A DNA stretch of 45,440 nucleotides from a virus (taxonomy: Duplodnaviria > Heunggongvirae > Uroviricota > Caudoviricetes), in IMG/VR virus record IMGVR_UViG_2526164690_000022, one strand, 5' to 3'. Both the position numbers and the translations under genes were made by a program. The notes beneath the pieces were generated by a model. The model made no database searches, was not told the DNA's origin, and saw nothing but the letters and a program-made list of their open reading frames with translations. Shown one piece after another: positions 12,921 through 40,449 of this stretch. How positions within the stretch are numbered: the first letter of the stretch is position 1; each line of letters opens with the position of its first letter.

Positions 12921-14083
12921 CCACTATTACCAAAGAGCGACTGCTGGCAATCAAGCAGTGGCGCGAAACATACGGACCTGGTAGCAACGTTGTACTGCCA
13001 GCAGAAGAAGCGGAAGAACTGGCACGGATTGCTCTGGCAGCGCTGGAAGCTGAACCTGTTCTGTATCAGTCCTGCACTCGCCCCACTTGGAATAGCGGTG
13101 TTCCGTGGACGGAATGGAAAGAACGTAGTCGTGAGGGCTACGAAAACGATTTGCGCTTTACAGACACGCCTGACCATGCCGGTTGGATAAACAAATGCCG
13201 AAAACTATATACCACTCCGCCAGTTCCGGTAATGCAGGCTGATGTCGCGCAAGCAATTGAAAACCTCAAGCAGAAGTTAGTGGAATGCAATCGCTATAAC
13301 TACTGCGCAGATGCCGTTAAAGGTGTTGAGGATGCCAGCCGCGTCTTGGCACTCCAAAATCAAAATATGTCAGCGCCGATAACGCCGGAGGCTATTGAAA
13401 ACGCAATTGAATACATCCGCAGTATCGCTTTTCACATCAATGAAGACGATTACCACGGCAAACATATTGCGTATTTCATGCGACAAGCATTGGCCTGGCT
13501 GGAAGGGCATTCATGCAGCAACGATAGACTGGGTAAAGCCGATAATCAACCAGTACGCGGCAACCAGGCTGCCGAATCCAATCGCGGTAATGAGTGGACC
13601 GGCAATCCTGATATTGATAACGCCATCATCATGCTCGATCGCATAGATACTCTGGAAAATTGCGATGATGACCGTATTGAGGCTGTTAAGGCCGTTTTGC
13701 GTAGACTGGCTGGCAACTATCCGGATATTCCGGATAGTTCGGTGCCAGCGCCAGGAAAGGGCGTCACCGGTGAACGTATCCGAATTAAGCCGCATGTTTA
13801 TCGCGAACTGGTTAACCGTCTCCACGATACAGCGATCAAGTGTGCTGGCACCCAGCAATTACGAGAAAGAATTAGCCGTGTTTTAGGCGACGTTATTACG
13901 CCAGATCATCATAAACAAGCCGAGAAAAGTGGCTTGGAAAGGTGTCACCTTGAGGCGGCATTAAACATTAAGCCGGGGCATACACTTGGCATTATTGATG
14001 CACTATTGGTTCATAAGATGGCCAGGGCTTTATTGCCGCTGGTGGCTGAAAAGCATGAGGTGGACCATGCCAACGAAAGCTGA
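12917..14083 (+). CDS. Hypothetical prophage protein sharing a C-terminal module with the DUF4406 protein
   Basis: 388-aa ORF; PHVYRELVNRLHDTAIKCAGTQQLRERIS parallels HLYRELVDALRDVAIECHGTDQLRARLS in 4784..5410. Confidence 0.5.
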   Translation: MTTITKERLLAIKQWRETYGPGSNVVLPAEEAEELARIALAALEAEPVLYQSCTRPTWNSGVPWTEWKERSREGYENDLRFTDTPDHAGWINKCRKLYTTPPVPVMQADVAQAIENLKQKLVECNRYNYCADAVKGVEDASRVLALQNQNMSAPITPEAIENAIEYIRSIAFHINEDDYHGKHIAYFMRQALAWLEGHSCSNDRLGKADNQPVRGNQAAESNRGNEWTGNPDIDNAIIMLDRIDTLENCDDDRIEAVKAVLRRLAGNYPDIPDSSVPAPGKGVTGERIRIKPHVYRELVNRLHDTAIKCAGTQQLRERISRVLGDVITPDHHKQAEKSGLERCHLEAALNIKPGHTLGIIDALLVHKMARALLPLVAEKHEVDHANES

Positions 14084-19210: not shown

Positions 19211-19551
19211 CGACGCCCCCTTGCAGGATAGCGACCTGCATTAGTATCCGGTGCAATAAAGCCGGTAGTGGGGCGAGTGAAAGCGAGATTAATCTTCTCG
19301 ACCATAGTGCGATAATTTTCCTGATAGTGGGCCAGGAGTTTTTCGGCGGCAATGATGGTTACTTTCCGGACGTAGCTTTCTGCTTCCTCCAGATTTCGCC
19401 AGTTTTTTTCGAGGGTAAACACAGGGACGGCCTCAAGCCCGGTCATGATGCCGAACACAACGACAGCATGACTGTTCTTAACACCAGCGGCGAAGGTTAC
19501 GGTGTAACCATCCACCTTAAAGCGTCTTGATTCCGTGATTTGACTCTGCAA
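19207..19551 (-). CDS. Hypothetical protein immediately downstream of the cre-like gene
   Basis: 114-aa ORF; same relative position as the cre-associated gene in P1. Confidence 0.4.
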   Translation of the reverse strand: MQSQITESRRFKVDGYTVTFAAGVKNSHAVVVFGIMTGLEAVPVFTLEKNWRNLEEAESYVRKVTIIAAEKLLAHYQENYRTMVEKINLAFTRPTTGFIAPDTNAGRYPARGRR

Positions 19552-19624
19552 AGCACCCTCCGAAATAGGCGAGGGTACTTTACAGCAAAGATAACAATCT
19601 AAAAAGATGTGTTAGAAATTTAAT

Positions 19625-20653
19625 TTATGAATCCATCAGGCGGCTATTAGCCCCCACAGACACGCCGCCACGGCGCAGATACCGCATAAGTGTTTCCGGT
19701 TTCTTCCAGGTTCCTTCCTGCATGATCTCCACCATAGACACCTGCTTTTCTGCCATATCGATAGCAGCCCCGACACGAGCACTATGCCCGGTCCACGTCC
19801 GGTATCTCCCCTTGTTTGGAGTGGCATCTCTTTTATTCAGCAACACCCAGGCGTCACTAAATATTTTCTCCATTGCAGGTGCAGTAAGGGGCGTTGTCGT
19901 AATCCTGGCCTTATTGCTACGGTGTATCGGCGGGAACAGCACCGCGTCAGGATGTTCACGAAGCCCGGAAACATCCAGCCAGTCATTCAGCACAGCAGTA
20001 GTGCGACGGGAAAGCACCTTATCAAGCCCGGCGGCGGTCGTTATTGTCTTCGTGTGTGAAATATGTAGCGTGACAGTGTCACCTGTTTGGTCCAGATCTC
20101 CTACACGAATACGCGAGATTTCAGACATGCGCATCAGCGTATTGTATGCAACAAAGAGAAAAGCCCGGTTGCGCAGGTCCACCAGCCGTTCTGACCTGGA
20201 CAACAGGACGTCGAGCAGTTTCAGATCGTCCCACCGCAGCGGTATAGCCTGGCCTGTTCGTTCGCCTTTTTCCGTTGCCGCTTCACGCCGGATGCGCCGC
20301 ATAGCCAGAGAAACACTTTTATCATCCGAAAGTGGCGGAAGGCCACAATGCGAAAGCAGCATGTTCAGCATGGCGTAGTGCTTATCAATGGTGGTCGAAG
20401 CCAGATCAGCATCATGCAGCTGAAGAAAATACTCGCGGGCCATCTCTGGAGAGATCGGGAACCAGGCGAGCTGGCGAGCGTGACACCATCTCGCCCAGGA
20501 GTGAAACACTAACCGGAGATCGCGCAAAGTATTAGGCGCGTAAGCCCCCTGGTCATTCATGAACCGCATAAAGTTTTCTGCGGCCTCCTGGTACTCTTTG
20601 CCAATGTTGCGCAGAAAACCACTGGAGCTGCCAGAGATAATTAATTCACTCAT
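19625..20653 (-). CDS. Cre-like tyrosine site-specific recombinase
   Basis: Aligns with P1 Cre along its length: LNMLLSHCGLPPLSDDKSVSLAMRRIRRE; AFLFVAYNTLMRMSEISRIRVGDL; WTGHSARVGAAIDMA...VSMVEIMQEGTWKKPETLMRYLR (catalytic Tyr near the C-terminus). Confidence 0.85.
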   Translation of the reverse strand: MSELIISGSSSGFLRNIGKEYQEAAENFMRFMNDQGAYAPNTLRDLRLVFHSWARWCHARQLAWFPISPEMAREYFLQLHDADLASTTIDKHYAMLNMLLSHCGLPPLSDDKSVSLAMRRIRREAATEKGERTGQAIPLRWDDLKLLDVLLSRSERLVDLRNRAFLFVAYNTLMRMSEISRIRVGDLDQTGDTVTLHISHTKTITTAAGLDKVLSRRTTAVLNDWLDVSGLREHPDAVLFPPIHRSNKARITTTPLTAPAMEKIFSDAWVLLNKRDATPNKGRYRTWTGHSARVGAAIDMAEKQVSMVEIMQEGTWKKPETLMRYLRRGGVSVGANSRLMDS

Positions 20654-20804
20654 GAAACTATTTAACCTCTATATACAGATGACGCTACGCGAAAAATATA
20701 AAAATGACAGGGTAGCTATAAGTTAATTTTCAAGATTCAAACCTTTGATTCGAGGCACGTATTTTCAGTGATGTCAACACTGATCATCCACCCATGATTA
20801 TAGC

Positions 20805-20838
20805 TTAACTTTAAATAATGCCAATTATTTAAAGTTAT
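20805..20838. promoter_or_regulatory. lox-like recombination site (13-8-13)
   Basis: ttaactttaaata-atgccaat-tatttaaagttat; arms are inverted repeats (12/13); right arm matches loxP TATACGAAGTTAT at 10/13; about 150 bp upstream of the cre-like gene. Confidence 0.7.
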
Positions 20839-21020
20839 AAAATGGCGATTTTTTTTAATCCATCACAGATTGATTGCTGACCAGTAACACGTTGCCTTCA
20901 TGGTCTTTAATTTGCGAAGCGTGGTTTATACAGTTGGTTTTCTAAAATTGATGACAAAAAATCACAGTTCGATCCTTTACTCACTCTGTTATTCGACATA
21001 AATTTGTCATAGTAATTTTA

Positions 21021-21034
21021 TGTTAGAAAACTAA
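21021..21034. promoter_or_regulatory. Operator-like motif tgttagaaaactaa about 15 bp upstream of the 21049 gene
   Basis: Member of a dispersed motif family (see findings); a second half-site-like copy ttttctaaaa lies at 20939-20948. Confidence 0.4.
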
Positions 21035-21048
21035 ATCGAGTAGGAATA

Positions 21049-22086
21049 ATGAGTAAGAAGTCGATCGAGAAAGAGTACAAACGGTTCCTGCAAACCGCTG
21101 AACGGTGGAAAGAGCTGGTGGTCGCAAACTCTGTTTTCCATGATACCAGTTATGCTGGCGAGGAATTCCGCCATGTTGCATTAACGCATGACCAAAACAT
21201 ATTAGAAGAAGCTGAAAAATGTCTTGCTGAATGGAAAGCCTTCGTTGACATGTGCCGCGATGCCGACGGCAAAGCGTCGAACATTGTTGAGTCTGTATAT
21301 TCTCCGATCCCATTCATCATTGAGGACACCAATCAAAGCACGCATGTTGTTGTGCAAAGCGCTACAACAACACGTACATTTACACGTGAACAATTGCTCA
21401 AAAAATACGACAAAATCATAAAGAAAAGCCTGAAAAATAGGGTTTTTTCTCAAATCGTAGGTGCTCTTGAAGAAGAACAGCGCTTCTTTGAAGCTGAGCC
21501 TGAAGGCGAGATCTACCGGGCGCGTAAAGAGGCATATACAGATGTTGTGCTGACAACAAACATCGAAGGCAGCAATGCCCTTTCTCGCTTTAGAGTTGGC
21601 GCACATGGCGCATTGGTTTTCGCAAGACTACCGAAGACAACAATCCCCGTTGTCAATAATGTTGGTGAGCGCCGGAGCATTACAATTTATTCTGGCGTCG
21701 AATCGGTACCTTGCAGCCTTCTCGGCGATTTTAACTTATATCGTGTTCGTGACCTGGAAAAACACCAGCCAAGCTACGTTGCGAAGTCGTACATCTTAAG
21801 GAACATCGATATTCGCAATGAAAGCCTTAAGCAGAAATCCGCTAAGATGCTGGAGGATGCCGATCCGGCTATTCGCCATATCATTGAGCGTAAGATACGT
21901 ACATCACGTGAAGCAATGGCAAGGCTGGATAAAATGGATCTGGAATTGTTAGACGTAATGATGGCCTCTGGAGACGACCTGACCGGCATTAAACTGAATG
22001 AAGCTCGTAAAAAATACGGCAAAGCAATCGAAGAACGTTACGGATACACATTCCCCCAAACGCAGTACGCCGCGAAGCTCTGGTAA
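21049..22086 (+). CDS. Hypothetical protein in the immC position (candidate C1-type immunity repressor)
   Basis: 345-aa ORF between the lox site and pacB, convergent with pacB, operator-like motif at its promoter; no sequence motif recognised. Confidence 0.45.
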   Translation: MSKKSIEKEYKRFLQTAERWKELVVANSVFHDTSYAGEEFRHVALTHDQNILEEAEKCLAEWKAFVDMCRDADGKASNIVESVYSPIPFIIEDTNQSTHVVVQSATTTRTFTREQLLKKYDKIIKKSLKNRVFSQIVGALEEEQRFFEAEPEGEIYRARKEAYTDVVLTTNIEGSNALSRFRVGAHGALVFARLPKTTIPVVNNVGERRSITIYSGVESVPCSLLGDFNLYRVRDLEKHQPSYVAKSYILRNIDIRNESLKQKSAKMLEDADPAIRHIIERKIRTSREAMARLDKMDLELLDVMMASGDDLTGIKLNEARKKYGKAIEERYGYTFPQTQYAAKLW

Positions 22087-22113: not shown

Positions 22114-23622
22114 TTATATATCCAGATCCGGCATTTCGATATCCGCCAGAACCTGATCTCGGAAAGTTGCCATTTCGGCACCAATATCTTCATTAGCAGG
22201 CACATAGTCCACCAGCATAGTGAAGCAGTAGGTATCCCATCGGTCAGGCGATTTGATGTTTAGCTTTTGCCGCATGTGCTCTTTGCGCATCATCGCCATT
22301 TTCCCTTCTTCATTCAGTAAAAAGGGGATTTTTGACGCTTGCTCTGCCGTTTTAGGGTCACTGTCTATCCGCATACGCCCTGACTTTATGGCATCACGCG
22401 CCATAATATTTGCGTAGGCACGCTGATTAACAAATCGCTCCCTGTCTTTGTTCGCAAACATGGGTTTTCCCCACCGAATACGTACCGGGTTCGCACCACG
22501 ACGCACCAACTGCGCACACGTATCAGAACCAAAACCATCAGCATCAACCGCGATTGTTATATTCGGGTATTTTTCCGGCGTACATTCGTTATATATGAAG
22601 TCAGCAAAGGCCAATGGGTCCATAGTGCCAGGCATCTCCATTACCTTAAAGTTAACAACGCGCCGCTTATCCCTGTGACCAGATACTTTGCAGATGTTGA
22701 GGACCGACTTATCTCGCCCATTACCAACGTCAGCCGTTGCCACCCATCCCCAGTTTTTCTCCAACAACACCTTGCGGCGAGCAGCGCGATCGCATTCATC
22801 ACGACCAAGCAAATAGCCGTTAATTTCTCGTGGGAACTGACCAAGCACCTTGACCATGTACTCAATAGAATCGCGCCCGCCATATTCCAGAAGCTTCTGC
22901 TTGATGAATTGTGGTGTGACGAACGGTGATTCTTCCGAGTTAAGAACAATTGCTGTCCAGATCCCTTTCGGGTTGTCTGGGGTTTTTGCTTGAGAATGGT
23001 GCGAATCGTAGAAATAACCACTTGGCCTTGTTGGCTGGGATAGCATCAACATCCGGTTATCTTCTTCAGTAAGAGCACCGGTCATTACGCCGATCGCCTT
23101 ATCAGATATACCAGATGCTTCGTCCAGAATTAGAAGCAAATGTGCCGCGTGTTCCCCCGCCAGCGCTTCTTCGTTGCCGAGTCGATAACCTTTGCAGAGA
23201 ACTTCCCAAATCCCCTTACGGGAGCGCTCATAAAACATGGTGTCAGAGAGGACAAAATAGGTCTGCAACCACCCATGACGCTTAACTGCATTCGCCCAAT
23301 ACTGTTTAACGTATTTGAATACGCCTGTTTTTACCTGGCCTATCTTGTTAGCAACAATGATGACACGGGCATCGGGGAACAGGATCATAAAAATCAACAG
23401 CAACATCGCGGTAAGGGACGACTTCCCCGTTCCGTGTCCGGACGTGACGGTCGTCCTACTCCCCGTTTCCTGCACTGACTGAATGATCTGCTGCTGCTGG
23501 TGGGAGGGGAACATCCCAAAAATATCGACAACAGCCTGGGTAAAGTTGTAGCGGTATTTGATTACCATATCGCGCCAGCGTGGATCGCTGGTGACGCATT
23601 TAATCTTGCGCCCGCCAGCCAT
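22114..23622 (-). CDS. pacB: Terminase large subunit PacB-like
   Basis: Walker A TVTSGHGTGKSS near the N-terminus; 502 aa; directly downstream of pacA. Confidence 0.8.
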   Translation of the reverse strand: MAGGRKIKCVTSDPRWRDMVIKYRYNFTQAVVDIFGMFPSHQQQQIIQSVQETGSRTTVTSGHGTGKSSLTAMLLLIFMILFPDARVIIVANKIGQVKTGVFKYVKQYWANAVKRHGWLQTYFVLSDTMFYERSRKGIWEVLCKGYRLGNEEALAGEHAAHLLLILDEASGISDKAIGVMTGALTEEDNRMLMLSQPTRPSGYFYDSHHSQAKTPDNPKGIWTAIVLNSEESPFVTPQFIKQKLLEYGGRDSIEYMVKVLGQFPREINGYLLGRDECDRAARRKVLLEKNWGWVATADVGNGRDKSVLNICKVSGHRDKRRVVNFKVMEMPGTMDPLAFADFIYNECTPEKYPNITIAVDADGFGSDTCAQLVRRGANPVRIRWGKPMFANKDRERFVNQRAYANIMARDAIKSGRMRIDSDPKTAEQASKIPFLLNEEGKMAMMRKEHMRQKLNIKSPDRWDTYCFTMLVDYVPANEDIGAEMATFRDQVLADIEMPDLDI

Positions 23623-24986
23623 TAATCATCCTCCGGCGGTTCTATCGCGATATCATCATCTCCGGCGTCATACCCTGCATCAGATGCATCATAATCACCG
23701 TAAATTTCAGCCGTTGCCGAAGGGTCAATATCCAGCTCTTCGTCGTTGGCCTCGAATTCTCCAGCTTTACGCTCGCCATTGCGGTCGTAATCTCCGCACC
23801 CCAATTCTTCAACAATGGTTGCCACATCCGCCCGGCGCTCTGCCAGCCATTGCGGATGGTTAGCCTGAAGCGTTGCAAACTCCCTTGCCTCTTTGTCCAG
23901 CTGTTCATCATCAACATCATTGACGTCAGAAACAGGTGGTTCGAGAAGAGTGATAGCTTTCGCCGCGCGCGCCGCGAGGATAGCCGGGACGCTGACCCCC
24001 TGGCGCTCGATGTATTCAGCAACACCGATATCATCCAGTTCCTCGCGCTCACGCATACGTATAGCGGCGGCGATAACTCTGGCAGCGCGTGCGTCAGCGC
24101 CAATGCGATATTCAATCTCTTTGCCACGCTGTTCGGCCTGTAGGCGTGCTAATTCGAGTTTTTCTCTGGCCTCAGCCTCTTTGAATGCTTGCTGGCGAGC
24201 GCTCTGACGAAGCTTTTCATCCCCCTGTCGCAGCTTTTGTTCGGACTGATATATAGCTGCCAACCTACTGATAAAATCATTCATGTAGTAGGCCGCGTCA
24301 CTGATTAGACCGAGAAGGCGCTGCCCAGGGTGCATTCCTTCTGGCTCTTTATCGCCCAAGGCGTCTATTTCCGCCTGTAGACGTTCGGCCTCCTGATCAA
24401 CAATGCTTTGATACTGAAGTGCGCGCTCTTGCGCCATTTGAATTGCTAACCGCAGGTGTTCTTCTGCGCCGTTCTTCATCATGTCGCGAGCCACATTCGT
24501 AGTGGGCAATGTGGCACGTTGCACAGCACCGCCAGGGATCATTGCTGAAGATCCCTCAATTTTTGGGGCGCTTTTATCTTCTTCGGGGATCATTTTCGCC
24601 ATTTTTTCGCGCAATGATCTCCTGACAGATTCTTTTATCTCATTGTTATTATTTGCATTATTTTCATGATCCGAAGTTTTCTTTCTCGGCATACTTCGGA
24701 AAGAACCTGCGCCCTGCGAATTGTCAATTTCTGTAAATTTTGTTTTTTCTGCACCCTCTTCCAGCTTTTTTGTTGCTCTTCCCGCCCGTTTTTTTTCAGG
24801 TGATTTGGTGCTTTTTTTTGTTGTCTTTACCTGCGACCGCACCTCATTTTTTTTCATATTGAGATGCTTTCTGGCTGTATTGAAGCTAAGGCCATGCTCC
24901 TCACAGTATTCCTTTACAGTGATCCCTTTTTCTTCACGCAAAGCTATAAAGCGGGCGCGGTGCTCCTCCCAATTAACCAGACTCAT
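23622..24986 (-). CDS. pacA: Terminase small subunit PacA-like (HTH, acidic C-terminus)
   Basis: N-terminal MSLVNWEEHRARFIALREEKGITVKEYCEEHGLSFNTARKHL; strongly acidic C-terminal tail. Confidence 0.7.
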   Translation of the reverse strand: MSLVNWEEHRARFIALREEKGITVKEYCEEHGLSFNTARKHLNMKKNEVRSQVKTTKKSTKSPEKKRAGRATKKLEEGAEKTKFTEIDNSQGAGSFRSMPRKKTSDHENNANNNNEIKESVRRSLREKMAKMIPEEDKSAPKIEGSSAMIPGGAVQRATLPTTNVARDMMKNGAEEHLRLAIQMAQERALQYQSIVDQEAERLQAEIDALGDKEPEGMHPGQRLLGLISDAAYYMNDFISRLAAIYQSEQKLRQGDEKLRQSARQQAFKEAEAREKLELARLQAEQRGKEIEYRIGADARAARVIAAAIRMREREELDDIGVAEYIERQGVSVPAILAARAAKAITLLEPPVSDVNDVDDEQLDKEAREFATLQANHPQWLAERRADVATIVEELGCGDYDRNGERKAGEFEANDEELDIDPSATAEIYGDYDASDAGYDAGDDDIAIEPPEDD

Positions 24987-25483: not shown

Positions 25484-25876
25484 CTACCAGCGAGACAAAC
25501 GAACAACATGTTTCACTTTTGCGATCCACTTTCCGCGATAACTATTGATTACGGCCTGTGCCAGCTTCAAATTGGCTTCAAAATCAGCCTTACTACCATC
25601 AGACTCCACCAGCATTCCTCCATCTATTTCTGGTAAACATAGATAATCCTGCTCAACCTGCAGCGGCATTGATGGCTCTCTGAATGGCGTTACTTGCTCT
25701 GCTTTCCAGCGAAATCTAACCCTCATCCCCCTGGTGGTCATTACTAGATAGCCTGTTATAGTGCTTTTATGGCCCACATCAGTACGCGTGGCATTGCATG
25801 ACACGATCTTACAGTTAGCGATAGACCACTCCATATTGGTGGCCTGTTGAGTGCTTAATTTGGTAGTCCCGTACAT
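25484..25876 (-). CDS. Hypothetical protein
   Basis: 130-aa ORF. Confidence 0.4.
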   Translation of the reverse strand: MYGTTKLSTQQATNMEWSIANCKIVSCNATRTDVGHKSTITGYLVMTTRGMRVRFRWKAEQVTPFREPSMPLQVEQDYLCLPEIDGGMLVESDGSKADFEANLKLAQAVINSYRGKWIAKVKHVVRLSRW

Positions 25877-26451
25877 CAGAAAGCCTCCCAGTCAGTCGCG
25901 ATAATATCCACACCAGTTGCAAACCAGTCTGTCTGCGCCTGTAAATCCCCATTCATCATTACCAGGCGAGGCATCACCATCACATCGCACCCTTCCACAA
26001 TATCGAATGCCTCTTCCGGCAAGAATTCGAAGAGCTTTTCTTTGCTGCCAATGCTGCCACGGAACATCGATATATAGCTCCCTTTAGGCCATGATGTCCG
26101 CCGGGCATCAAGCCCTTTCATCATCCAGTAAAAAGCCGAGGAAAAAGGGATATTCTTTTTGCCAATGATTACATTATTCGCTTCTGTGTACTTCAGGAAC
26201 TTAACTAACCTTACCATTGACTCGGATAACGCAACGTATGGCTCATGATTGATTGCTGACACGCTTACACCGTGCAATCCAACGCTTACCACTGTCATAT
26301 CGCCGCTCTGTGCGGTTTCGATATTGACGCCTTTGCGAACTAATGAGGCGTAAAGTTCCTCTCGCTTTTGGGTCCAGCGTTCCCGCTTCCCTATGAAGTC
26401 ACTCAAAATGAGATCTTCTTCTGCATATGCGTTATCGTTCGCCATTAACAT
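25876..26451 (-). CDS. Two-domain protein with probable C-terminal DUF2829 (Tad2-like) domain
   Basis: FSSAFYWMMKGLDARRTSWPKG ... DIIATDWEAF resembles the DUF2829 pattern. Confidence 0.4.
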   Translation of the reverse strand: MLMANDNAYAEEDLILSDFIGKRERWTQKREELYASLVRKGVNIETAQSGDMTVVSVGLHGVSVSAINHEPYVALSESMVRLVKFLKYTEANNVIIGKKNIPFSSAFYWMMKGLDARRTSWPKGSYISMFRGSIGSKEKLFEFLPEEAFDIVEGCDVMVMPRLVMMNGDLQAQTDWFATGVDIIATDWEAF

Positions 26452-26905
26452 AACGTCTCCTTTTTTACACGCGCGACTATCCCCCGGAAGTGCCGGTAGT
26501 GATGTCGTAAATTCGTATTAATTAAGGGGTACAGCCTGAGCGGCTATATGATGAATTGAAAGGAGTTGTGGCGGTGGTGCCTCCACCTGCCAGGTTAGCC
26601 ACTCCTGGCGACGTCACTTATCAGAACGTAGTGAATAAAAATGGCTTCGTCACGAGCGCATAGCCGCAATTACCACAACGGAAACGGTGCTCACGCTAAT
26701 TAAACGCCTTTTCCTGTTGTGCGCCGTGCTCTTCCGGCTGTCACACCGAATCGCCAGGATGGTGAGTCCTCGGTCCGCCACTGTTATCGGGGCTTGCACA
26801 TTCCGGCTACCTGGTCCGTTTGCCTGAGCAAGAGTCAAAGATACCCCTTTAACGTCACCAGACCGCTAACGACGCATGTGCCAGACGCCGTGTTACAACC
26901 AAATA

Positions 26906-26981
26906 TGGTGGCCCCTACCGGACTTGAACCGGTGACCGTGCGATTATGAGTCGCCAGCTCTAACCACTGAGCTAAAGGGCC
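26906..26981 (-). tRNA. tRNA with CAU anticodon, ileX-like (tRNA-Ile2 lysidine type; Met by anticodon alone)
   Basis: GGCCCTTTAGCTCAGTGGTTAGAGCTGGCGACTCATAATCGCACGGTCACCGGTTCAAGTCCGGTAGGGGCCACCA; full cloverleaf; close to E. coli ileX as recalled. Confidence 0.8.
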
Positions 26982-27135
26982 AGATTACTGTTAATTCCGC
27001 TTACGCTTTTTGCCAGGACCGCGTAAGGCTTTTGCTGCTTGCTCGACCCCATATGCAACCACCAGCAGAAATAAAAATGTCCACCAAGGGTTCTTGTCGG
27101 CAAACGTCCAAAATTCCATCATGTTATCTATTTGG

Positions 27136-27963
27136 TTATTTCACCGGAACAAACGGAACAGCGGTATTACTGGTCATATACTGCGGTAGCGTTCCGTTCC
27201 ATTTGTTGATCGCTTCCAACTCCATAACGCCGGGGTTCTGGCGCAGAGCCTCACCGCGTAAACGAATGGCATCAGCTTCAGCCTGGGCTTTTGTGCGAAT
27301 GGCATCGGCCTGTCCAGCAGCTTCTGCGCGCAGCATGTTGGCTTCTGCTTCGCGTTGCTTGACTTCCTGCTCGCGTTGCAGAGTTTTCTGGTTCGCCGTG
27401 ACTTTGGCATTAATGCTGTCGATAACGGTTGGCGGGTACTCCGGCTTGCCCACATATGAGAGGCTCATTACCTGAATACCGATGGGCGTCATTTCTTCCT
27501 GAATGTCTTTAAGGGCTGCATCAAGCAATTCAGATTTGCCACCGTCGATAAATTTGTCGGTGGTCATTTTGCTGGCTAACCGGTTCAGAGCATCTGCAAC
27601 CTTCTGGCGTAGATCGGTATCAGTAATATCATCTACACCTTTGCGATAGGTCTGAAATACCGTTGTGACTTTTGCTGGATCAACCTTGTAGGCTACGCCG
27701 ATGTGGTAACCAATGGTTGTTCCGTCGCTCATCTGGAAGCTGAACGGCTCGTCGTATGTCTTCATTTGCTTAAAGGTCGGGAAGATATAAACTTCAGTAT
27801 TCAAGCCTGTCCAGTAGCGACCAACGCCAACTACTTCACCGATACCTTTATCATCCCCCAGCTTATTTACTTTGATCCCTACGTTACCTGGCTCTACCCG
27901 ATCGCATCCGGTCAGACATAAAGAACCAAAAATAATCGCTGCACTAATCAACGTTTTTTTCAT
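27136..27963 (-). CDS. plp: SPFH/Band-7 family lipoprotein (plp-like)
   Basis: Lipoprotein signal MKKTLISAAIIFGSLCLTGC; SPFH-type body with Ala/Gln/Glu-rich coiled-coil tail. Confidence 0.65.
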   Translation of the reverse strand: MKKTLISAAIIFGSLCLTGCDRVEPGNVGIKVNKLGDDKGIGEVVGVGRYWTGLNTEVYIFPTFKQMKTYDEPFSFQMSDGTTIGYHIGVAYKVDPAKVTTVFQTYRKGVDDITDTDLRQKVADALNRLASKMTTDKFIDGGKSELLDAALKDIQEEMTPIGIQVMSLSYVGKPEYPPTVIDSINAKVTANQKTLQREQEVKQREAEANMLRAEAAGQADAIRTKAQAEADAIRLRGEALRQNPGVMELEAINKWNGTLPQYMTSNTAVPFVPVK

Positions 27964-28180
27964 TAATCAATTTCCTGGTTTTTTCACGAAAAAAGACTAC
28001 TGCAAAAGCCGGGTAAATGAGCGCGAGAAGGACTCCCAACAATACAAGTATTGTGCTGTCAGATGAGATCATATTTGGCAAAAGCCAAACATACAGAACC
28101 AGTGACACAATCAAACAGAGGACGACATAAATATATAACCGCACCCATAGCGTTCGACATTTGTTCGGATTGTTCTGCAT
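27944..28180 (-). CDS. Small membrane protein (upl-like)
   Basis: Two predicted TM helices (VVLCLIVSLVLYVWLL; LVLLGVLLALIYPAFAVVFF); overlaps plp start. Confidence 0.45.
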   Translation of the reverse strand: MQNNPNKCRTLWVRLYIYVVLCLIVSLVLYVWLLPNMISSDSTILVLLGVLLALIYPAFAVVFFREKTRKLINEKNVD

Positions 28181-28323
28181 CCTCTCACTCCATTATTTAC
28201 CGAATAAAAAAGCTGCGGTGCCTGGTGCCTCCAGGTGACGTTAACCAGTTAACAATTAACGCCGGGATGTTTGACTTAACCACTAAGGAGGATTGTTTTA
28301 ACTGTTCCGCGTGCGCTTAGCCG

Positions 28324-28882
28324 CATTCACCGCAATGGTAAGAGCACTTGGCTGGCTGGGCGGCGATGACGCCTGTACGCATTTGGTGATCCGGTTCTGC
28401 TTCCGGCATTCGCTTAATTAGCCAAATACTCTTAACGTTGCACTGGCGGAGAGTAATGGAATCGAACCATCATCGCTTGCGCAATGGGACGGTTTTCAAG
28501 ACCGCTTGAGCACCATGCTCCCTACTCTCCAGTGATTGTGATGGTCGGTGCTGAACTCCGACACAGGGTTGTAGCAAGCCCCGCAAAGCGCGCACTACTG
28601 TAGTTGCGGCACATCAGCCTGTGCATTCACCACAATGTTGAGAACACTGGTTGTCACGCTGCAACGCAACATTTATTCATAGATTGGGATATGACCCCGT
28701 TACGCCAGTGTTCTCAACGTTGTGGTGCCGGTTACGGTTCCGGCCAGGCCTCTTCCTCAACGGGGTGTTCTCCATACGGACTACCGTTTATTGGTCGTTC
28801 CTGCGGTTTATGTTGTGAAGCCAGATGCTTATCTTCTGGTTGCTTCAAAGAGCTGCACTTCATCACAACGGTAAGAGCACTC
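28324..28882. repeat. Family of ~23-bp repeats flanking the tRNA genes (four clear copies)
   Basis: caccgcaatggtaagagcacttgg (28326), caccacaatgttgagaacactgg (28628), inverted copy ccagtgttctcaacgttgtggtg (28706), catcacaacggtaagagcactcg (28860); degenerate fifth copy near 26676. Confidence 0.55.
28444..28530 (-). tRNA. tRNA-Ser (UGA), class II with long variable arm; atypical D-arm
   Basis: GGAGAGT...GCGGTCTTGAAAACCGT...GGTTCGATTCCATTACTCTCCGCCA; anticodon stem-loop matches E. coli serT as recalled; D-loop short. Confidence 0.6.
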
Positions 28883-28932
28883 GATGCATTTAAGCCAAGC
28901 CCCATAAGGGAGAATGCCCTTACCTGTTGTGT

Positions 28933-29008
28933 TGGTGCCGGTTAACGGACTCGAACCGCTGACATCCTGCTTACAAGGCAGGCGCTCTACCAACTGAGCT
29001 AAACCGGC
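28933..29008 (-). tRNA. tRNA-Thr (UGU)
   Basis: GCCGGTTTAGCTCAGTTGGTAGAGCGCCTGCCTTGTAAGCAGGATGTCAGCGGTTCGAGTCCGTTAACCGGCACCA; perfect acceptor stem. Confidence 0.85.
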
Positions 29009-29012
29009 AATT

Positions 29013-29099
29013 TGGTGGGGAGTGATGGAGTCGAACCACCCGAGTCGCAATGACAGTAGATTTACAGTCTACCCCGCTACCCCTACGGACTAACTCCCC
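29013..29099 (-). tRNA. tRNA-Tyr (GUA), class II
   Basis: Acceptor GGGGAGT/ACTCCCC; anticodon arm GTAGA-CTGTAAA-TCTAC; long variable arm; GGTTCGACTCC T-loop. Confidence 0.75.
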
Positions 29100-29104
29100 T
29101 AAAT

Positions 29105-29181
29105 TGGCGATGGTGGGTGGATTCGAACCACCGACCGACAGCTTAGAAGGCTGCTGCTCTATCCTACTGAGCTACACCATC
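29105..29181 (-). tRNA. tRNA-Arg (UCU)
   Basis: GATGGTGTAGCTCAGTAGGATAGAGCAGCAGCCTTCTAAGCTGTCGGTCGGTGGTTCGAATCCACCCACCATCGCCA. Confidence 0.85.
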
Positions 29182-30415
29182 ACTTGCCGGGTACGTCTCC
29201 GGCGAGGGCTTCCACCTCCGTATGCTTTTCGGCGCACCGCGCCCTGGCTGCAATTCGGTAACAGGGGATGCACAACCCTGGCTTCCAGCGTGATTAGCGC
29301 CTTCAGCATGACGGGATATACCCGTAGTAGGATGTTATCCCAGAAAGCCATTAATCAATGGCTGTTACGCGGGAGGGACGTAACAGGTAAGGGCGCTGAC
29401 CAGAAAGACCTGACCCTTCTCATTCATCTGGTTAATCACACCAGCGCCCTTGCCTGTTATGCCTCCCCGTTCCCTAATACACAGACGGGGACACTCTGCG
29501 GTCGATTTTTTGACGGGGGACGACTCATACCCCGTGGCGTCTGGCTTCTTAGGCCGCTACCATCATCAGATCATCGTTTGCATTTACTTTAATGGTCGGT
29601 TTCTAAACCGCCGCAAAGTCGCTAACCATGACGAAAACCCTAAAAAAGCCCACCCGAAGATGGGCAAATACGCTACATCTCACACAAGAAAGAAGCCGAC
29701 TGCCTGAGCTGGATTCACTTTCAAATGCCCGCAGAAAGGGATCACAAGTCGGCTTCTTTCTTGATGCGGCACTCTCTCCGCCCGTCACCGCTCTGTCTCG
29801 GTTGTCGCGTTTGCCACGCCAGCCGTAACGAGGTTTAAAGTCTTTACACGTTTCCATCACTCGACTGCCGTCTGTGGCTGTTCGTTGCAGCGGGGGTGCC
29901 TCCCCCTGGGGATATCCCCGGCCTTACCCCATTCTTTCAAGACACAATGCAAGACCACATCCGCATAGGTGCATTACCGCAACATTAAGGAGACTCAGGG
30001 CAAAAGGTAACCGCCACAAAAATCCCTATGCCTCCTTAATGTTGAAGATGTGCATTGATGATTAGATGCAGCATGTACCGTTACTCTCTGCCGGACCATC
30101 ATCAATGAACACCTTAAAAAGACCTTCCGTGGCTCAACATGTATTGTCGTTTACTCCGCAAAGTGCTCTCTCTGAAACCACTTTCCGCACTAAACCTGCT
30201 GAACTTTGGCCTGCACGGTGCCAAAGCGTGCTCTTGCATTACCATACTTTTCTAACACTTTAATTTGTTAAATGCTGGTGGGCGAACAATAACCAATAAG
30301 TGACTATCAAGCCCAGCAAGCGAAACGTGGGTACTGCCCACCAGCAAGGAAAATTCTATGTTAAGTTATCTCCACAATCAATACATTCGAATTGTGATTT
30401 TAGATTTCTAACACA
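29182..30415 (-). ncRNA. ORF-free, hairpin-rich region at the 5' side of the tRNA operon (candidate structured leader / stable RNAs)
   Basis: No credible ORF over 1.2 kb; several long perfect inverted repeats with 40-50-nt loops (e.g. 17-bp stem 29685-29701/29748-29764); operator-like motifs at 30250 and 30406. Confidence 0.3.
30250..30274. promoter_or_regulatory. Operator-like inverted pair ttctaaca-N8-tgttaaat
   Basis: Member of the dispersed TTCTAACA family; upstream (minus-strand sense) of the non-coding region and tRNA cluster. Confidence 0.35.
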
Positions 30416-33576: not shown

Positions 33577-33612
33577 TCAAATTCGGCCCCGGTTGGGGCC
33601 GCTCCTTATCTG

Positions 33613-36600
33613 TTAGGCCGCATCGGCGATTATTTTACGCAGTTCATCTACCGAGTAACGCGTAGATACCATCCATGCAGGACGGTCAAAGTTCACATCA
33701 GCAACCGGGTTTGCTTCAAAATTCCAGAAACGCCCGCCAATCTTCTTAATCGCGTCTTTGGCGTTCCGTATTGTCGAGGAACCTGGTTGGTCGGCAATGA
33801 GATAAACCGCGCCAACGTCCTCGCTGACGCTCCACCAGCGCCCGCGAACACGCGCCTTAGCGCGAATCGGCTTATCATTAACCACAATGATATAGTCATC
33901 ATTCGCCGCTTCATCAGCTCTGGCTTCAGCCACTGCCGCCTGCTCTTCTCTTTTGCTTTCAGCCTGCTCAAGCCTTTCCGCGATCTCTGATTCAGTGGCC
34001 CCGCCGTTTTTCAGCGATACATAGTCCTGCCACGTTGCCGATTTGAGCGTATCCGGCAACTCATTCACATAGTCGCCGTCTTTCAACTCACGGGCGCGGC
34101 GGGTAGCCATTTCTACCAGGCGATTAACAGAAACAGCATCAGCAAAATCGTCCTTACTAATGTATTTTTCATCAAATGCATTGATGACAGCCCCCACCTT
34201 AATCCACTGTGCTGCCGGTGATTCCAGGGGGTTATCAGCCTGAACAATGGCGAGTTTCGCTCCATCTACCCCATTATTCGCCAGCTGTTCCAATGCCGCC
34301 CATCCATCTGCATCACTGAGTGATTTATATTGCTCAAACAATGCATCGCGCCAGGCCACCAGCGCAGAACGTGTTTTTTCGATCTTCGTCTTAATTTTCG
34401 CTATCTTGACCTGATTAAACATCCGTTCAATATCATCGATATTGCTAAAGGCTTTCATCCTGCCCTGGAATAAACGGTATGCCAGCACGGTCCTCCAGAA
34501 TGATTCCAGACCTTCTCCGGACGGTTTGCGGAACAAGCTAAGAATATCTTCAGAAGTGACTTTATTAAGCGAGCGACCTGACAGACCACGCCCAGCCATC
34601 CAGTTTTCGAACTCCTGGGCAACATCATCCATCGTTGCTTGTGCGCCCCATGCCTGCATTCCCTGGATGTAATCATACCCATACAATGCCTGGAGGAATC
34701 CCTCTCCGTCCACGATATTCAGCGGATTATCACTGGCTTGTATTTTTGCCACTTCACGCTTCAGCGCCTCATTGTTGATATCAGGGTAAATCCACTGCTC
34801 TGGTGCAATATCCGATGTACGCCCGATTTTCTGTCCTATCATGCCATCATAGGTCGATGACAGCGCGATCTGACCATCATCGGTGCGATAGGCCCAGTAT
34901 TTAATACCTGGTTCACCGCCCCATGCTCTACCAGGCTGGCCTGTAGTGACCTTCATTACTCCGTTACGAATAGCATCATAGAACTGATCGCGAGTAAGTG
35001 ACGTTGATAGCTGGTGGCACTGAACACCACGCGCAGCCGTTGCGCGCGATTCAGCTACCCCCTCTTCAAAAGTTACCGCTTCAATCACAGAGTCAAACGG
35101 CAATGTAACGATTGACCCCGGTGATCGAGCGTAACGACTTGCTCTATCCAGCCAGGCGATACGGCAGATGTATTGTGCTTTTTCACCGTCAATTTTTTCC
35201 ACCCGGACAATCGCTGTTGTTTCGCGATCATCAATGACTGCACGGTAATAACTACCTTTATGCAACAGGATATTCTTGTCAGTGCGCATATATTCCTGTG
35301 GGTTCTGAATAACATCGATACTGATATCCAGCACACCAGACTTAATAGCGCGCTCCACATCACCACGAGAGCGTTTCATTATGGTATCCGCGTCTTTTGC
35401 CCTGGTGATCGCAAACTTCAGCACCCGCGCACGTTTTCTGTAGCTACTCAACTGCTCAAGCGCGTATTTTTGCCCATTCCTGTTCGTACCCGCTTTTATC
35501 AGGTCGTCAAGATTGCGCTGGTAATACTCTATCTGTTCCATCGCGCTTTTCAGTTCTGTCTCCATCATGCCGATATCTTTTCCGGCGGCGTTTGCCGCTT
35601 TCAGGTAGATATCGAGAGCATTGTTGGCCTCGCGCTGTGCTTTCAGTTTCAGACGTTCTTCACGCTCTTGCGCCTGGCGAGCCATGATTGCGCGGCGTTC
35701 TTCCGGGTTTGCCGCCAGCATAATGGCGCGTTCATCAGCATCATCCGCATCACCATTGGCGATCTCTGACATGTCGGAGGTCATCACCATCTTGATCCAG
35801 TCTTTCTTACGTTTCAGCGTATCCAGACGGAAGTCGTCGAATGTGCCTTTGCCACAATAGTAGTGAACATTGACCTTCTCTTGCGGTGAACCTACGCGCG
35901 CACCGCGCCCATTTCGTTGGTCGATACTGGCTGGTGTCCAGGGTAGTGTCAGGTGGTGGATATCGGTTGTCCCGATGTGCAGGTTAATACCTACTTCAGC
36001 CTTCTTGTTACAGATTATGATGCGCGTGCGACCTTCGTTATAGTCGGCGGCAATACCTTCCATGCCCTCAAGGCCAGCATCATTTTTGGCTGAGAGATAA
36101 TCCTCATATTGGGCAAGTTTGCTGTAGTAGGTTTCCCATGCCCCTTCTTTGTATTCACCGTTTTTGTTTGGAGTAGGTTCGGTCGGCTTATTCACCTTCT
36201 TCAGCTTGATGCCGCCAGCCTGGCTAACTGTCGTCGCATTGATAATGCCAATCTCCTGCTCCGGCATTTGCAGTGCACTGGCGATAATACGGCGCAGCTT
36301 CTGGTGCTGGGCTTTTTCATCAATAAAGACGATCTGCTTACCGTTCTTCAGACCTTCACGAAGATTTTCGATCAGCGCGGCATACTTCGGCGGGATGGGG
36401 TGCGATACCTGCTGCATATCAATACCGGCAGCCGCAATGGCCTTAAGTATTTCAGCTTCCAGTTCAATGCTGGCACGTATTTCAACATGCGTCGGATGTT
36501 CACTAAAAGCGGTCTTCACTACCTTGCTGGTACGCGTACTGACCAGCCCGCCAGCGCCGTCTTCCTCGGCCTCATCAACATCATCTGCCACTTTACCGCC

Positions 36601-39600
36601 AGCTACTTTTGGCAAGGCATCAGCAATAGCTTTTACCTGGTCTGCAAGCTCAACGGGGAACTGGAATGTAATCGCACTGGCATACAGATCCGGGTCTATA
36701 GCAACCTTGTCCATGTCACGGATGATGGAGAAGATGAAATCATCCGGTTTGTCGTTAGTGATATGCCCGTTTTCATCGACTGTCAGCTCATCATTGCGAC
36801 TTAACTCCTGAGCACGCTTACGAAGCTCTTCATAAGCAGTCTCCTGCTCCCCTGTCATCGGGATCTGCAAGGTGTTCTCAATGATGTCGGGAATTTTAAC
36901 CGTTGCTCCGACATCTGCAGCAGTCTTCAGAGTGGTCCAACGATGGAAAATACCACGCAGGCCGTCAAGGTTCTGGAAGCCCACCAGCCCCTGCTTCTCT
37001 TCCACTTCCCCGGAAATTTTCTGGACCTGAACTGTGGCTGTTTTGCCAAACACACGAACGAAATCATCAGGCGTAATGATGCCCATGCGCATCCACTCTT
37101 CCTGCGGAATGACAGTAGACAGCATGTTGAAGGCATCAATCGGACTGTTCACCAGCGGAGTTGCCGTCAGCATGACTACACCACGCCCGTTGTTGCGTTT
37201 CATCATGTACGCAGCTTTTACAGCCATGTCGCGGGCCATCTTGGATACTGCCGGGTTAGGCAAATATGCCAGTTGTCCCGCTTCACGCCCGGCATTAAAG
37301 GAGTTGCGGTAGTTATGCCCCTCGTCGGCAATCACGCTATCGAAGTTCATATCCTCAAAGTACGGGATATTCTGCTTCTTCGTTGTACCGGTATTCGCGG
37401 CCTGATCCTTAATCTTGTTCTTCTTCTGCGCATCACGGTGTTTACCGGACGCCAGGTCAAGACGCCCCATTTCCACAGCATTAAAGACAGCTTGCTGTGA
37501 GTTCTCCTCGATGGTTTTTTCTCGTAGCGGGATAGACGCGAATTGTTCTTTTGTCATGATGACCGTTCGCCAATTTGACGACGGGATCATGTTCATGCGC
37601 TGAACGATAACGGCGCTGGCGGACTCTTTCACAACATTTCTGGTAAGAGGCTGCCCGTTACTGTCGAGGCGTGGTTCGCCATTTTCATCAAGCACCGGCG
37701 CGGTCAGAATATTTCCGCTGTCATCACGAACTTCATCCAAACCGATAAACATCATATTGGCGAAGGCATCAGCACTGTAGAAACTCTGTGCCTCGTGATA
37801 CCAGTTCTGATAAACCGCCTTCGGAACAACAATACACGTGCGTTTAGTGCGACCTGTTTCGAAGTTATACGCCTCAAGCGCAAGCGCGGTCGTGGTTTTA
37901 CCCAGCCCGGTACCAAATCCCATGATGCCGCGCCCATCTTCTGACAAGCGCCGAACTTCTTCATTCTGATAAGTAAGAGGAATGCGCTTTCCACTAAGCC
38001 CTTCCAGGCCAAGCGGTGCGTCAGAATGCGTGAACGGAATGAAACCATTGAATGCGTCGTTATACTCGCGGGCTATCTGATCAGCCTGCGGGTGAGTGCG
38101 TAACCAGTCGTTAAAACTAACTTCCAGTTGAGCAATTTTATCCAGGTACTCGTTAGCGTTCTGCCCACGCGGTTTAACACCGTTCAGGTAGTTTTCTAAC
38201 TGGTTCAGGAAGCCGTCTTTATTGTTGGCCTTCTTGAACTCATTCCCGTTTTTGCCGTTTACGGTTCGTAGCTGATAGCCGGTAAATACCCCGTCCTTAC
38301 CTTCGTAATCGTCCGGAGATACCAGAATGCCATCGACGACCTTCAGATCAGGTTCAGTGTACTTAAACTCGTCATAGCCCTGCTCTGCCAGGAACTCTTT
38401 TATCAAGCGGCGATCCAGCCAGCGGGCATTCAGATTAACGGTGACTTTATTTAGTGGCGTGAAAATACGTTTCTCTTCGATTTTCGCCAACTGACGCTCA
38501 AAGTTCGCTTTCTGCTCACCTGTTGACGCATCACGCCAGCCCATCAGCAATGCTGTTTTGGTTGCAATATCGCCGCTGGTGGCGCGGTCCATCGGCAGCA
38601 GGCAGCCATACCCATCAATAGCGATATCATCAAATTTCGCCAGGTATTCAAGGGCCGCGTCGTCGTCCTCTGGCAGTTCACCAGCAAACGCCTCACGAAA
38701 GTCTCCCAGCGTTATAGGATTAAGGGCTACATCACTGAAAAGATGTGCTATCACTTGTTCAGGACGTGTAAAGTCAATACCGGCAGCACCATCCGTTACA
38801 TCAAGTCGCCCTGCCAGAAGGTCAGAAGTGGAACCATCCTGTTTCACATTGCCAGTGAACGTCATCCAGTTTTTAGCGCCAGCTTCAGCAAGCCCATTCA
38901 GCTTAATGGCGTGCGGTGGTCCATACTTCGCAACTTCTGCTGCCGCCAGGCGGGATGCATCTGCCAGTTTGTCATCAACGTTCACACCCAGGTTACGCAA
39001 ATCAAGTGCCTTGTTGATCAACTGACCTATCAGCGCACCGCGCATAACGCGCTCCCTGTCTTTTTCTCGCTGCTTGCCAGCAAAGCGAATCATTGCTGCC
39101 ACTTCATCACTGACAACCGATGGATAGTCGGACGCGATCGCCGATATCTGGTCCCATGACAAAGCCAGAATCCCGTTTGTTGACTGGAACGCGATCTGCA
39201 GATCGCCAAACGTCGAAACACCATATCGACTTACATCAAGCGCGGAGGATTTGGTTGTCGTGTCCTTAACCCATTTCAGACCATCAAACTCATGCCAGAT
39301 ACCGCCTACAAGGCGTTTATCGCCCACTTTCGCGCCCTGCCATGCCTGAGTAGTTACGCCGAGCAAATCCCAATTGATGCGACTATCAAAGCGACGAGAT
39401 AGCGCGGTTTTCATCGACTCATTGGATACACGACCGTCTTTTTTCACCACCAGGGTATTGCGGAAGCTGGTACGTTCCATGTCGCCGTAAACAAATCGCT
39501 TCCCTTCGGTTGTAAACCATTTTCCTTTGAGGAAGGTATCCCAAAGGACGTTTGCCGATTTGAGTGTTGAATCATCCGTGTCGGGGATCATCTCCAGGAA

Positions 39601-40449
39601 GGTTTCCGGGTGTTTACGCAATACCCATACGTCCACCACGGTATCTGTACCGGATTCGCTGAACGTACCAGAAGGCATACGATGTGCGCCCAAAAATTCC
39701 GCTTTACGGCTGACTTTATCGCGCAATTTTTTATATTTCGCACCATCGGTCATGCCATTCGGCACCACCAATACGATAAGCCCACCAGGCTTAACCTTGT
39801 CGATCGTGCGCAGCACAAAGTAATTGCCAACGTTCTTCTCGTTTGCATATGCCGGATCAAGCCCGGCGACACCGGAACGCCCTTCACCAAACGGTACGTT
39901 ACCTACAGCGTGATCATACATTGCGTCTTTCGCCGCCAGCGCCTCAAACGCCCCGATATTCACATCGTCTTCCGGGTGCAAAAGCTGGTTTATTCGACCG
40001 GAAATCGGAGACAGTTCGGCGCTGGTCATTATCATGCCCTGCCGTTTTGTCTCCTGGAAAATACCTGTGCCCGCTGATGGTTCCAGTACGTGCCCGCCAT
40101 CAATACCGTAGTCAGCAAACAGATCCCATATACCTTCAGCCATAAACTGTGGCGTGTAGTATTCGTATTGGCTGCCCTCACCATCTGTCAGGCCGCCTTC
40201 ACCGGTATACCCGGCAAGAATCTGACGTTGTTCGTCAGTTAATTTCGCCCCATCGAAGCCGGGCGGAAGGGAATTAAGAAGATTTACTGCGGCATTGTTT
40301 GCTGCCCGGCGTGTTTTCTGAATACTGACGCCATCGGCTTTCCTGACGCCAAAGGTCGCAACAGCACGTAATTTATGCAACCGACTAACAATTTCAATCA
40401 GTTCGCCTAAGCTGGAGGCTTCACTGATTGAATGAAGTAGTTTGTCCAA
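33613..40449 (-). CDS. darB: DarB-like giant antirestriction protein (N6-adenine methyltransferase + DExH helicase domains)
   Basis: 2278-aa uninterrupted ORF; methyltransferase motif I EPSAGTGIF and motif IV NVPF near the N-terminus; helicase Walker A GFGTGLGKTTTALAL and motif II IADEGHNYRN. Confidence 0.8.
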   Translation of the reverse strand: MDKLLHSISEASSLGELIEIVSRLHKLRAVATFGVRKADGVSIQKTRRAANNAAVNLLNSLPPGFDGAKLTDEQRQILAGYTGEGGLTDGEGSQYEYYTPQFMAEGIWDLFADYGIDGGHVLEPSAGTGIFQETKRQGMIMTSAELSPISGRINQLLHPEDDVNIGAFEALAAKDAMYDHAVGNVPFGEGRSGVAGLDPAYANEKNVGNYFVLRTIDKVKPGGLIVLVVPNGMTDGAKYKKLRDKVSRKAEFLGAHRMPSGTFSESGTDTVVDVWVLRKHPETFLEMIPDTDDSTLKSANVLWDTFLKGKWFTTEGKRFVYGDMERTSFRNTLVVKKDGRVSNESMKTALSRRFDSRINWDLLGVTTQAWQGAKVGDKRLVGGIWHEFDGLKWVKDTTTKSSALDVSRYGVSTFGDLQIAFQSTNGILALSWDQISAIASDYPSVVSDEVAAMIRFAGKQREKDRERVMRGALIGQLINKALDLRNLGVNVDDKLADASRLAAAEVAKYGPPHAIKLNGLAEAGAKNWMTFTGNVKQDGSTSDLLAGRLDVTDGAAGIDFTRPEQVIAHLFSDVALNPITLGDFREAFAGELPEDDDAALEYLAKFDDIAIDGYGCLLPMDRATSGDIATKTALLMGWRDASTGEQKANFERQLAKIEEKRIFTPLNKVTVNLNARWLDRRLIKEFLAEQGYDEFKYTEPDLKVVDGILVSPDDYEGKDGVFTGYQLRTVNGKNGNEFKKANNKDGFLNQLENYLNGVKPRGQNANEYLDKIAQLEVSFNDWLRTHPQADQIAREYNDAFNGFIPFTHSDAPLGLEGLSGKRIPLTYQNEEVRRLSEDGRGIMGFGTGLGKTTTALALEAYNFETGRTKRTCIVVPKAVYQNWYHEAQSFYSADAFANMMFIGLDEVRDDSGNILTAPVLDENGEPRLDSNGQPLTRNVVKESASAVIVQRMNMIPSSNWRTVIMTKEQFASIPLREKTIEENSQQAVFNAVEMGRLDLASGKHRDAQKKNKIKDQAANTGTTKKQNIPYFEDMNFDSVIADEGHNYRNSFNAGREAGQLAYLPNPAVSKMARDMAVKAAYMMKRNNGRGVVMLTATPLVNSPIDAFNMLSTVIPQEEWMRMGIITPDDFVRVFGKTATVQVQKISGEVEEKQGLVGFQNLDGLRGIFHRWTTLKTAADVGATVKIPDIIENTLQIPMTGEQETAYEELRKRAQELSRNDELTVDENGHITNDKPDDFIFSIIRDMDKVAIDPDLYASAITFQFPVELADQVKAIADALPKVAGGKVADDVDEAEEDGAGGLVSTRTSKVVKTAFSEHPTHVEIRASIELEAEILKAIAAAGIDMQQVSHPIPPKYAALIENLREGLKNGKQIVFIDEKAQHQKLRRIIASALQMPEQEIGIINATTVSQAGGIKLKKVNKPTEPTPNKNGEYKEGAWETYYSKLAQYEDYLSAKNDAGLEGMEGIAADYNEGRTRIIICNKKAEVGINLHIGTTDIHHLTLPWTPASIDQRNGRGARVGSPQEKVNVHYYCGKGTFDDFRLDTLKRKKDWIKMVMTSDMSEIANGDADDADERAIMLAANPEERRAIMARQAQEREERLKLKAQREANNALDIYLKAANAAGKDIGMMETELKSAMEQIEYYQRNLDDLIKAGTNRNGQKYALEQLSSYRKRARVLKFAITRAKDADTIMKRSRGDVERAIKSGVLDISIDVIQNPQEYMRTDKNILLHKGSYYRAVIDDRETTAIVRVEKIDGEKAQYICRIAWLDRASRYARSPGSIVTLPFDSVIEAVTFEEGVAESRATAARGVQCHQLSTSLTRDQFYDAIRNGVMKVTTGQPGRAWGGEPGIKYWAYRTDDGQIALSSTYDGMIGQKIGRTSDIAPEQWIYPDINNEALKREVAKIQASDNPLNIVDGEGFLQALYGYDYIQGMQAWGAQATMDDVAQEFENWMAGRGLSGRSLNKVTSEDILSLFRKPSGEGLESFWRTVLAYRLFQGRMKAFSNIDDIERMFNQVKIAKIKTKIEKTRSALVAWRDALFEQYKSLSDADGWAALEQLANNGVDGAKLAIVQADNPLESPAAQWIKVGAVINAFDEKYISKDDFADAVSVNRLVEMATRRARELKDGDYVNELPDTLKSATWQDYVSLKNGGATESEIAERLEQAESKREEQAAVAEARADEAANDDYIIVVNDKPIRAKARVRGRWWSVSEDVGAVYLIADQPGSSTIRNAKDAIKKIGGRFWNFEANPVADVNFDRPAWMVSTRYSVDELRKIIADAA

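Follow-up and report, generated by a model that had tools for sequence, protein, structure and literature searches.

In phage P1, the Cre/loxP system is established to resolve plasmid dimers before partition and to cyclise terminally redundant infecting DNA when lox lies within the redundancy, as reported by Austin, Ziese and Sternberg in 1981, by Sternberg and colleagues, and by Lobocka et al. in 2004. The pair formed by Dre and its target rox has, according to papers citing Sauer and McDermott, been known since their work of 2004, and its use alongside Cre/loxP dates from then. Genome engineers routinely combine Dre/rox with Cre/loxP in mice, zebrafish, mammalian cells and bacteria.

Recombination of rox by Dre is efficient in both E. 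coli and mammalian cells and proceeds without accessory factors (PMC3082901, PMC4777119, PMC4957104). The rox site is made of 14-bp inverted repeats around a 4-bp asymmetric spacer; in spacer libraries the bases flanking this 4-bp core matter most for compatibility, and the same data suggest that the crossover region is about as long as that of loxP and is cut at corresponding positions, the exact points of cleavage being as yet unmapped (PMC4777119). Cre is inactive on rox and Dre is inactive on loxP (PMC3082901, PMC4957104), and residues K43, R259 and G263 of Cre have been shown experimentally to discriminate loxP from rox (Karimova et al., PMC4957104; repeated in PMC10250229). A further pair, Panto/pox, was described from Pantoea sp. 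aB by Karimova et al. in 2016, with Panto being 52% identical to Dre (PMC4957104). Dre and Panto act on each other's sites; rox and pox do not recombine with one another (PMC4957104), because they are unlike in spacer and in outer arm base. Dre and rox have also been spotted in E. coli already, in H252 (100%) and in DEC12A (99.7%, one point mutation) (PMC4957104 and its supplement), and with the latter in the catalogue a one-substitution Dre allele of the kind described below is not new.

The recombinase gene and its target site

The DNA analysed here, referred to as the window, is a single stretch of 45,440 nucleotides. A megablast search of positions 19400-21200 against phage records matched Escherichia phage D6 at 96.6% identity over 1.8 kb, and the D6 features lying under the match are annotated as "dre: tyrosine recombinase", "c1: phage repressor protein" and "region of crossover (rox) site for Dre recombinase". 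The window and the D6 record AY753669 share the gene order dut-orf3-orf2-dre-rox-c1-pacB-pacA-lpa; rox is found between dre and c1, near pacB/pacA, in the same order and at the same spacing as in that record. The dre gene occupies 19625-20653 on the minus strand and encodes a Cre-type tyrosine recombinase of 342 aa, identical to D6 Dre (AAV84949.1, the dre product of AY753669) at 341 of 342 positions with G11S as the sole difference. The genes differ at 37 positions in 1029 nt, about 35 of these changes being synonymous; pN/pS is 0.018 against D6 and 0.06-0.26 against more distant relatives, and dre is under strong purifying selection.

A sequence-only reading of this DNA had taken the 342-aa product for a full-length but clearly diverged homologue of P1 Cre, and the searches bear this out. 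The protein scores 62.6 bits against Pfam PF00589 (Phage_integrase), where the gathering cutoff is 27.1; its best matches among solved structures are P1 Cre chains (E=5e-69, Dre residues 22-341), and a global alignment with P1 Cre gives 40.5% identity. All seven catalytic residues are kept, namely R175, E178, K202, H290, R293, W316 and Y325, corresponding to R173, E176, K201, H289, R292, W315 and Y324 of Cre; the same numbering is given for Dre in PMC4777119. The G11S substitution lies outside the stretch aligned with the Cre structures, within the N-terminal 20 residues, and is predicted to be neutral, with an effect on the protein being unlikely. A comparison of DNA contacts with Cre, which the same reading had proposed as a check, was carried out over 22 Cre positions which are taken here to be DNA-contacting or specificity-related; 18 of the 22 differ in the window protein, including K43, R259 and G263 of Cre, which are replaced by R44, P259 and K263.

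The published 32-bp rox sequence, TAACTTTAAATAATGCCAATTATTTAAAGTTA, is found unchanged at 20806-20837, where it exactly matches the misc_recomb feature of AY753669 and agrees with rox as printed in PMC3082901. The arm proximal to dre, TAACTTTAAATAAT (20806-20819, plus strand), is a perfect 14-nt inverted-repeat arm and a predicted binding site for a Dre monomer; it is followed by the asymmetric 4-bp core GCCA (20820-20823, plus strand) and by the distal arm on the c1 side, ATTATTTAAAGTTA (20824-20837, plus strand), which is the perfect complement of the proximal arm. With the AT on either side of it, GCCA makes up the 8-bp ATGCCAAT, the equivalent of the loxP spacer. The nearest rox base lies ~151-152 nt from the dre ATG on its upstream side, in keeping with the distance of about 150 bp noted from the sequence alone. 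Base 20805, just outside the proximal arm, is T in the window and C in D6.

The site had originally been described with the 13-8-13 geometry of loxP, as the 34-nt string ttaactttaaata-atgccaat-tatttaaagttat at 20805-20838, which may also be written TTAACTTTAAATA-ATGCCAAT-TATTTAAAGTTAT. Its centre is the same as that of rox, and the spacer-library data mentioned above make this view mechanistically reasonable, although the symmetry is formally a perfect 14-4-14: the two bases at each side of the 8-nt "spacer" are in fact symmetric, and the outermost pair of the string (20805/20838) is the mismatch and falls outside the published 32-bp site. The counts made within this parse were accurate, with the arms complementary at 12/13 positions and the right arm matching that of loxP at 10/13; the left arm agrees with loxP at 9/13, and the spacer, rightly noted as different, at 2/8.

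As an inverted repeat, rox is the longest perfect one in the window, and arms of at least 14 nt (with a 0-10 nt spacer) arose only once in 200 first-order Markov simulations. No second copy of the 32-mer occurs in the window even when up to three mismatches are allowed, with 0 occurrences expected in shuffles. The rox palindrome is beyond chance. The second-longest inverted repeat in the window is a perfect 11-3-11 palindrome, AACTATCCGGATATTCCGGATAGTT, at 13715-13739.

Given a site that equals rox at every base and a protein one substitution away from Dre, the locus is almost certainly the Dre/rox system known from D6, here borne by a D6-like E. coli phage-plasmid. All of the Dre/rox features that can be checked from sequence are present, and no observation speaks against this identification.

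Distribution and natural variants of rox

Plasmids from two bovine E. coli O111:H11 strains, including NZ_CP077569.1 (p88_0502-2, here L112), have a 1.8-kb dre-rox region 100% identical to that of the window. Matches to the region are found in 143 PLSDB plasmids (Escherichia 117, Salmonella 16, Shigella 9), and 117 of the 5426 complete E. coli genomes also have it, with 119 of the 122 places lying on plasmids. Dre/rox is thus widespread among the D6-like phage-plasmids carried by E. coli, Salmonella and Shigella, where it is under strong purifying selection. The other 3 of the 122 E. coli places are on chromosome records, and these could represent integration, co-integrate formation or an assembly artefact.

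NZ_CP077569.1 is a D6-type phage-plasmid, since it also encodes RepB, a ParM-type partition system, the addiction modules phd/doc and higBA, and proteins for head, tail and lysis. Ungapped alignment of the window with NZ_CP077569.1 over 40.6 kb gives 8307 mismatches despite the identical dre-rox region, so the window element must differ from p88_0502-2 elsewhere by at least one indel or module swap. Downstream of lpa, the annotation of NZ_CP077569.1 shows a Tad2-family anti-Thoeris protein, a cluster of five tRNA genes (for Ile, Ser, Thr, Tyr and Arg) and an SNF2-related protein of 6.8 kb, located at L112 25247-28552 and 32984-39820 (which would correspond roughly to 25876-29200 and 33600-40450 in the window), and phd/doc lies upstream of dut. 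P1/D6-type phage-plasmids typically carry counter-defence and addiction cargo of this kind.

Dre relatives at 55-100% protein identity are encoded at 36 loci in a scan of IMG/VR, and 35 of these loci have upstream DNA. A rox or rox-like site is present 151-153 bp before the start codon in every one of these 35, which supports a function for the site; its absence from related elements had been named beforehand as an observation that would count against the pair. The site is exact rox in 21 of the 35. The proximal arm is invariant in 33, position 9 alone being changed in the 55-56% homologues, and the core is the most variable part of the site. When the 407 bp upstream of dre are aligned for nine elements, rox stands as a near-invariant block with flanks that are unalignable in the 70% and 55% relatives; the site is a conserved island in diverged intergenic DNA, a clear phylogenetic footprint.

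The commonest departure is a T->C change in the distal arm (giving ATTATCTAAAGTTA; on the arm strand, A->G at position 9), which is seen in 10 of the 35 relatives (L079, L083, L085, L087, L092-L094 and L103-L105, at about positions 2817-2848) and renders the site asymmetric. L095 has the core CCCC and L108, whose protein is 70% identical, has GCTA, and in L105 the distal-arm change is accompanied by a core CTCC that reaches into the adjacent inner arm base. The two 55-56% Dre homologues, L110 (IMGVR_UViG_3300013827_000026) and L111 (IMGVR_UViG_3300025735_000294), have TAACTTTATATAAT-GTCA-GTTATATAAAGTTA at positions 2818-2849, with A9->T in both arms; the arm is intermediate between loxP TAACTTCGTATA and rox TAACTTTAAATA, and the distance to the start codon is as in rox. 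An assignment of L110/L111 to Panto/pox was considered and ruled out, their arm being TAACTTTATATA and the pox arms GAAACTTTAAATA. The 12-mer TAACTTTATATA did not occur in the relevant papers searched, the main text of the 2023 survey among them carrying no site sequences. These natural site variants might be of modest help in the selection of heterospecific rox sites.

Among more distant relatives (41-47% identical to Dre; 74 loci, L002-L075, from Pantoea, Rahnella, Mixta, Erwinia and related genomes), lox/rox-like palindromes are found at 32 of 74 loci. In 30 of these 32 the palindrome precedes the matched coding region by ~155-300 bp, and in L006 and L075 by ~950 bp. The arms vary exactly at the triplet that separates loxP from rox (AACTT-TAT/CAT/CGT/TAC-ATAA), and several of the sites have loxP-type CGT arms with different spacers. 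At the remaining 42 of the 74 loci, no lox/rox-like palindrome was found within 1 kb upstream under the filter used.

Probable natural role and alternative readings

By analogy with Cre, one Dre monomer would bind each 14-bp rox arm, and two rox sites would synapse through four monomers. Tyr325 would then cleave and exchange the first pair of strands within the central ATGCCAAT, giving a Holliday junction that would be resolved by exchange of the second pair, with the asymmetric GCCA core setting the direction of the site; Dre requires no accessory proteins. On the model of P1, a single rox would most likely let Dre resolve plasmid dimers into monomers and so secure stable inheritance; as with Cre/loxP of P1, Dre would also circularise infecting linear DNA when rox falls within the terminal redundancy. 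Dimer resolution and cyclisation are accordingly the roles that the P1 analogy would suggest for Dre/rox in this element, as the sequence-only reading had also proposed. The window has a single copy of the site, as have positions 1-89,999 of NZ_CP077569.1, and one rox per replicon fits a resolution or cyclisation site, not an inversion or excision switch.

In P1, the pac site consists of clusters of Dam-methylated hexamers. In the window, five GATC-containing hexamers (GGATCA, AGATCA, TGATCC, GGATCT and TGATCC) fall within 135 bp at 24537-24671 on the minus strand, in the 5' third of pacA (23622-24986), and this cluster is a candidate pac by analogy with P1. A canonical P1-type pac with TGATCA/G hexamers was not found as such, the degenerate GATC cluster in pacA being the only one present. 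The rox site lies ~1.3 kb from pacB and ~3.7 kb from the GATC cluster, and the anatomy of the locus fits both dimer resolution and cyclisation.

Other readings of the locus can be set against Dre/rox. The 40.5% identity to Cre, together with 3-4 differences from loxP in each arm and 6/8 in the spacer, would be in line with a Cre/lox-type pair whose specificity is new, shared with no described system, and which could furnish a further orthogonal tool. This is ruled out by the exact rox and by a Dre that differs by G11S only, a single N-terminal substitution, and a 99.7%-identical Dre with rox has already been catalogued in E. coli DEC12A; the chance of such a pair is practically nil. The sequence-only reading had suggested a Cre-like recombinase of distinct specificity with its own site, of interest as an orthogonal tool, and this much was right in that the pair is, but for G11S, D6 Dre/rox, for which published work shows recombination at rox and no cross-reaction with loxP (PMC3082901, PMC4777119). 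The novelty that it implied did not survive, rox being exact, Dre matching at 341/342 and both being annotated in D6. The pair is already known and not new, and the result is of little weight as a discovery; a reader working on raw sequence alone nevertheless correctly recognised a real and functional recombinase-target pair and its likely use. A lambda-style integrase, with the palindrome as the core of an attachment site and the element integrating into the chromosome, is extremely improbable. The protein does belong to the Phage_integrase family of tyrosine recombinases, and the chromosome records (3 of 122 E. coli places) would agree with integration; against this stand the 119 places on plasmids, the element's own RepB, ParM-type partition and toxin-antitoxin systems, the Cre-like character of the protein over its whole length beside a simple perfect 32-bp palindrome, and the published ability of Dre to recombine two identical rox sites without accessory factors.

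The palindrome might also act mainly as a promoter or operator for dre or c1 or, in a weaker form of the same reading, serve Dre self-repression besides recombination. A sigma-70 promoter-like site directed toward dre, matching the consensus at 11/12 positions, is located at 20797-20824 on the minus strand; its -35 TTGGCA (20824-20819) falls within the rox core, the proximal rox arm forms its 16-nt spacer, and the -10 TATAAT (20802-20797) comes immediately beyond rox. It is the sole site of at least 11/12 in the 45.4-kb window, where 0.40 would be expected, and its -10 is kept in relatives as distant as the one at 70% identity. However, recombination at this exact sequence has been established experimentally, which makes the exclusive form untenable; one such match is also produced in 3.4% of simulations of the AT-rich 395-bp intergenic region, the -35 is degraded in core variants (TGGGGA in L095, TTGGAG in L105), and the -10 is absent from L110/L111. 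A control element in place of Dre/rox is thus very unlikely. If the promoter is real, Dre bound at rox would occlude it, leading to autoregulation. A wider proposal would have rox double as the dre promoter/operator through Dre self-repression and the natural rox variants (core GCCA, CCCC or GCTA; one-arm A9G) act as barriers to Dre fusing co-resident D6-like plasmids; this is speculative and unlikely, and neither the autoregulation nor the variant-barrier idea was found in the literature searched, the primary 2004 paper lying outside it.

Comparison with known systems

Taken as Dre/rox, the locus resembles Cre/loxP of P1 in its full-length protein homology, its identical catalytic residues, its simple palindrome beside the recombinase gene and the c1/pac region, and its presumed natural role, which is the same. 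It differs in the central arm triplet, which is TAA in rox and CGT in loxP, in an unrelated spacer and in a 14-4-14 as opposed to a 13-8-13 arrangement; neither the loxP sequence nor K43, R259 and G263 are found at the locus. The likeness to Panto/pox lies in an arm that is nearly identical, GAAACTTTAAATA in pox and (N)TAACTTTAAATA in rox. The two differ in the outer arm base and in the spacer, which is ATAAGTCT in pox and ATGCCAAT in rox, and it is at these places that the pox sequence GAAACTTTAAATA-ATAAGTCT-TATTTAAAGTTTC is mismatched with the window site.

With Dre/rox of D6 (AY753669, MF356679), the locus shares the same 32-bp rox, 341 of 342 protein residues, the 152-bp spacing between gene and site, and the flanking gene order. 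What sets the window apart from D6 is the G11S substitution, the 37 mostly synonymous nucleotide changes and the T for C outside the proximal arm, and the pair is carried by a D6-like plasmid of E. coli instead of by D6.
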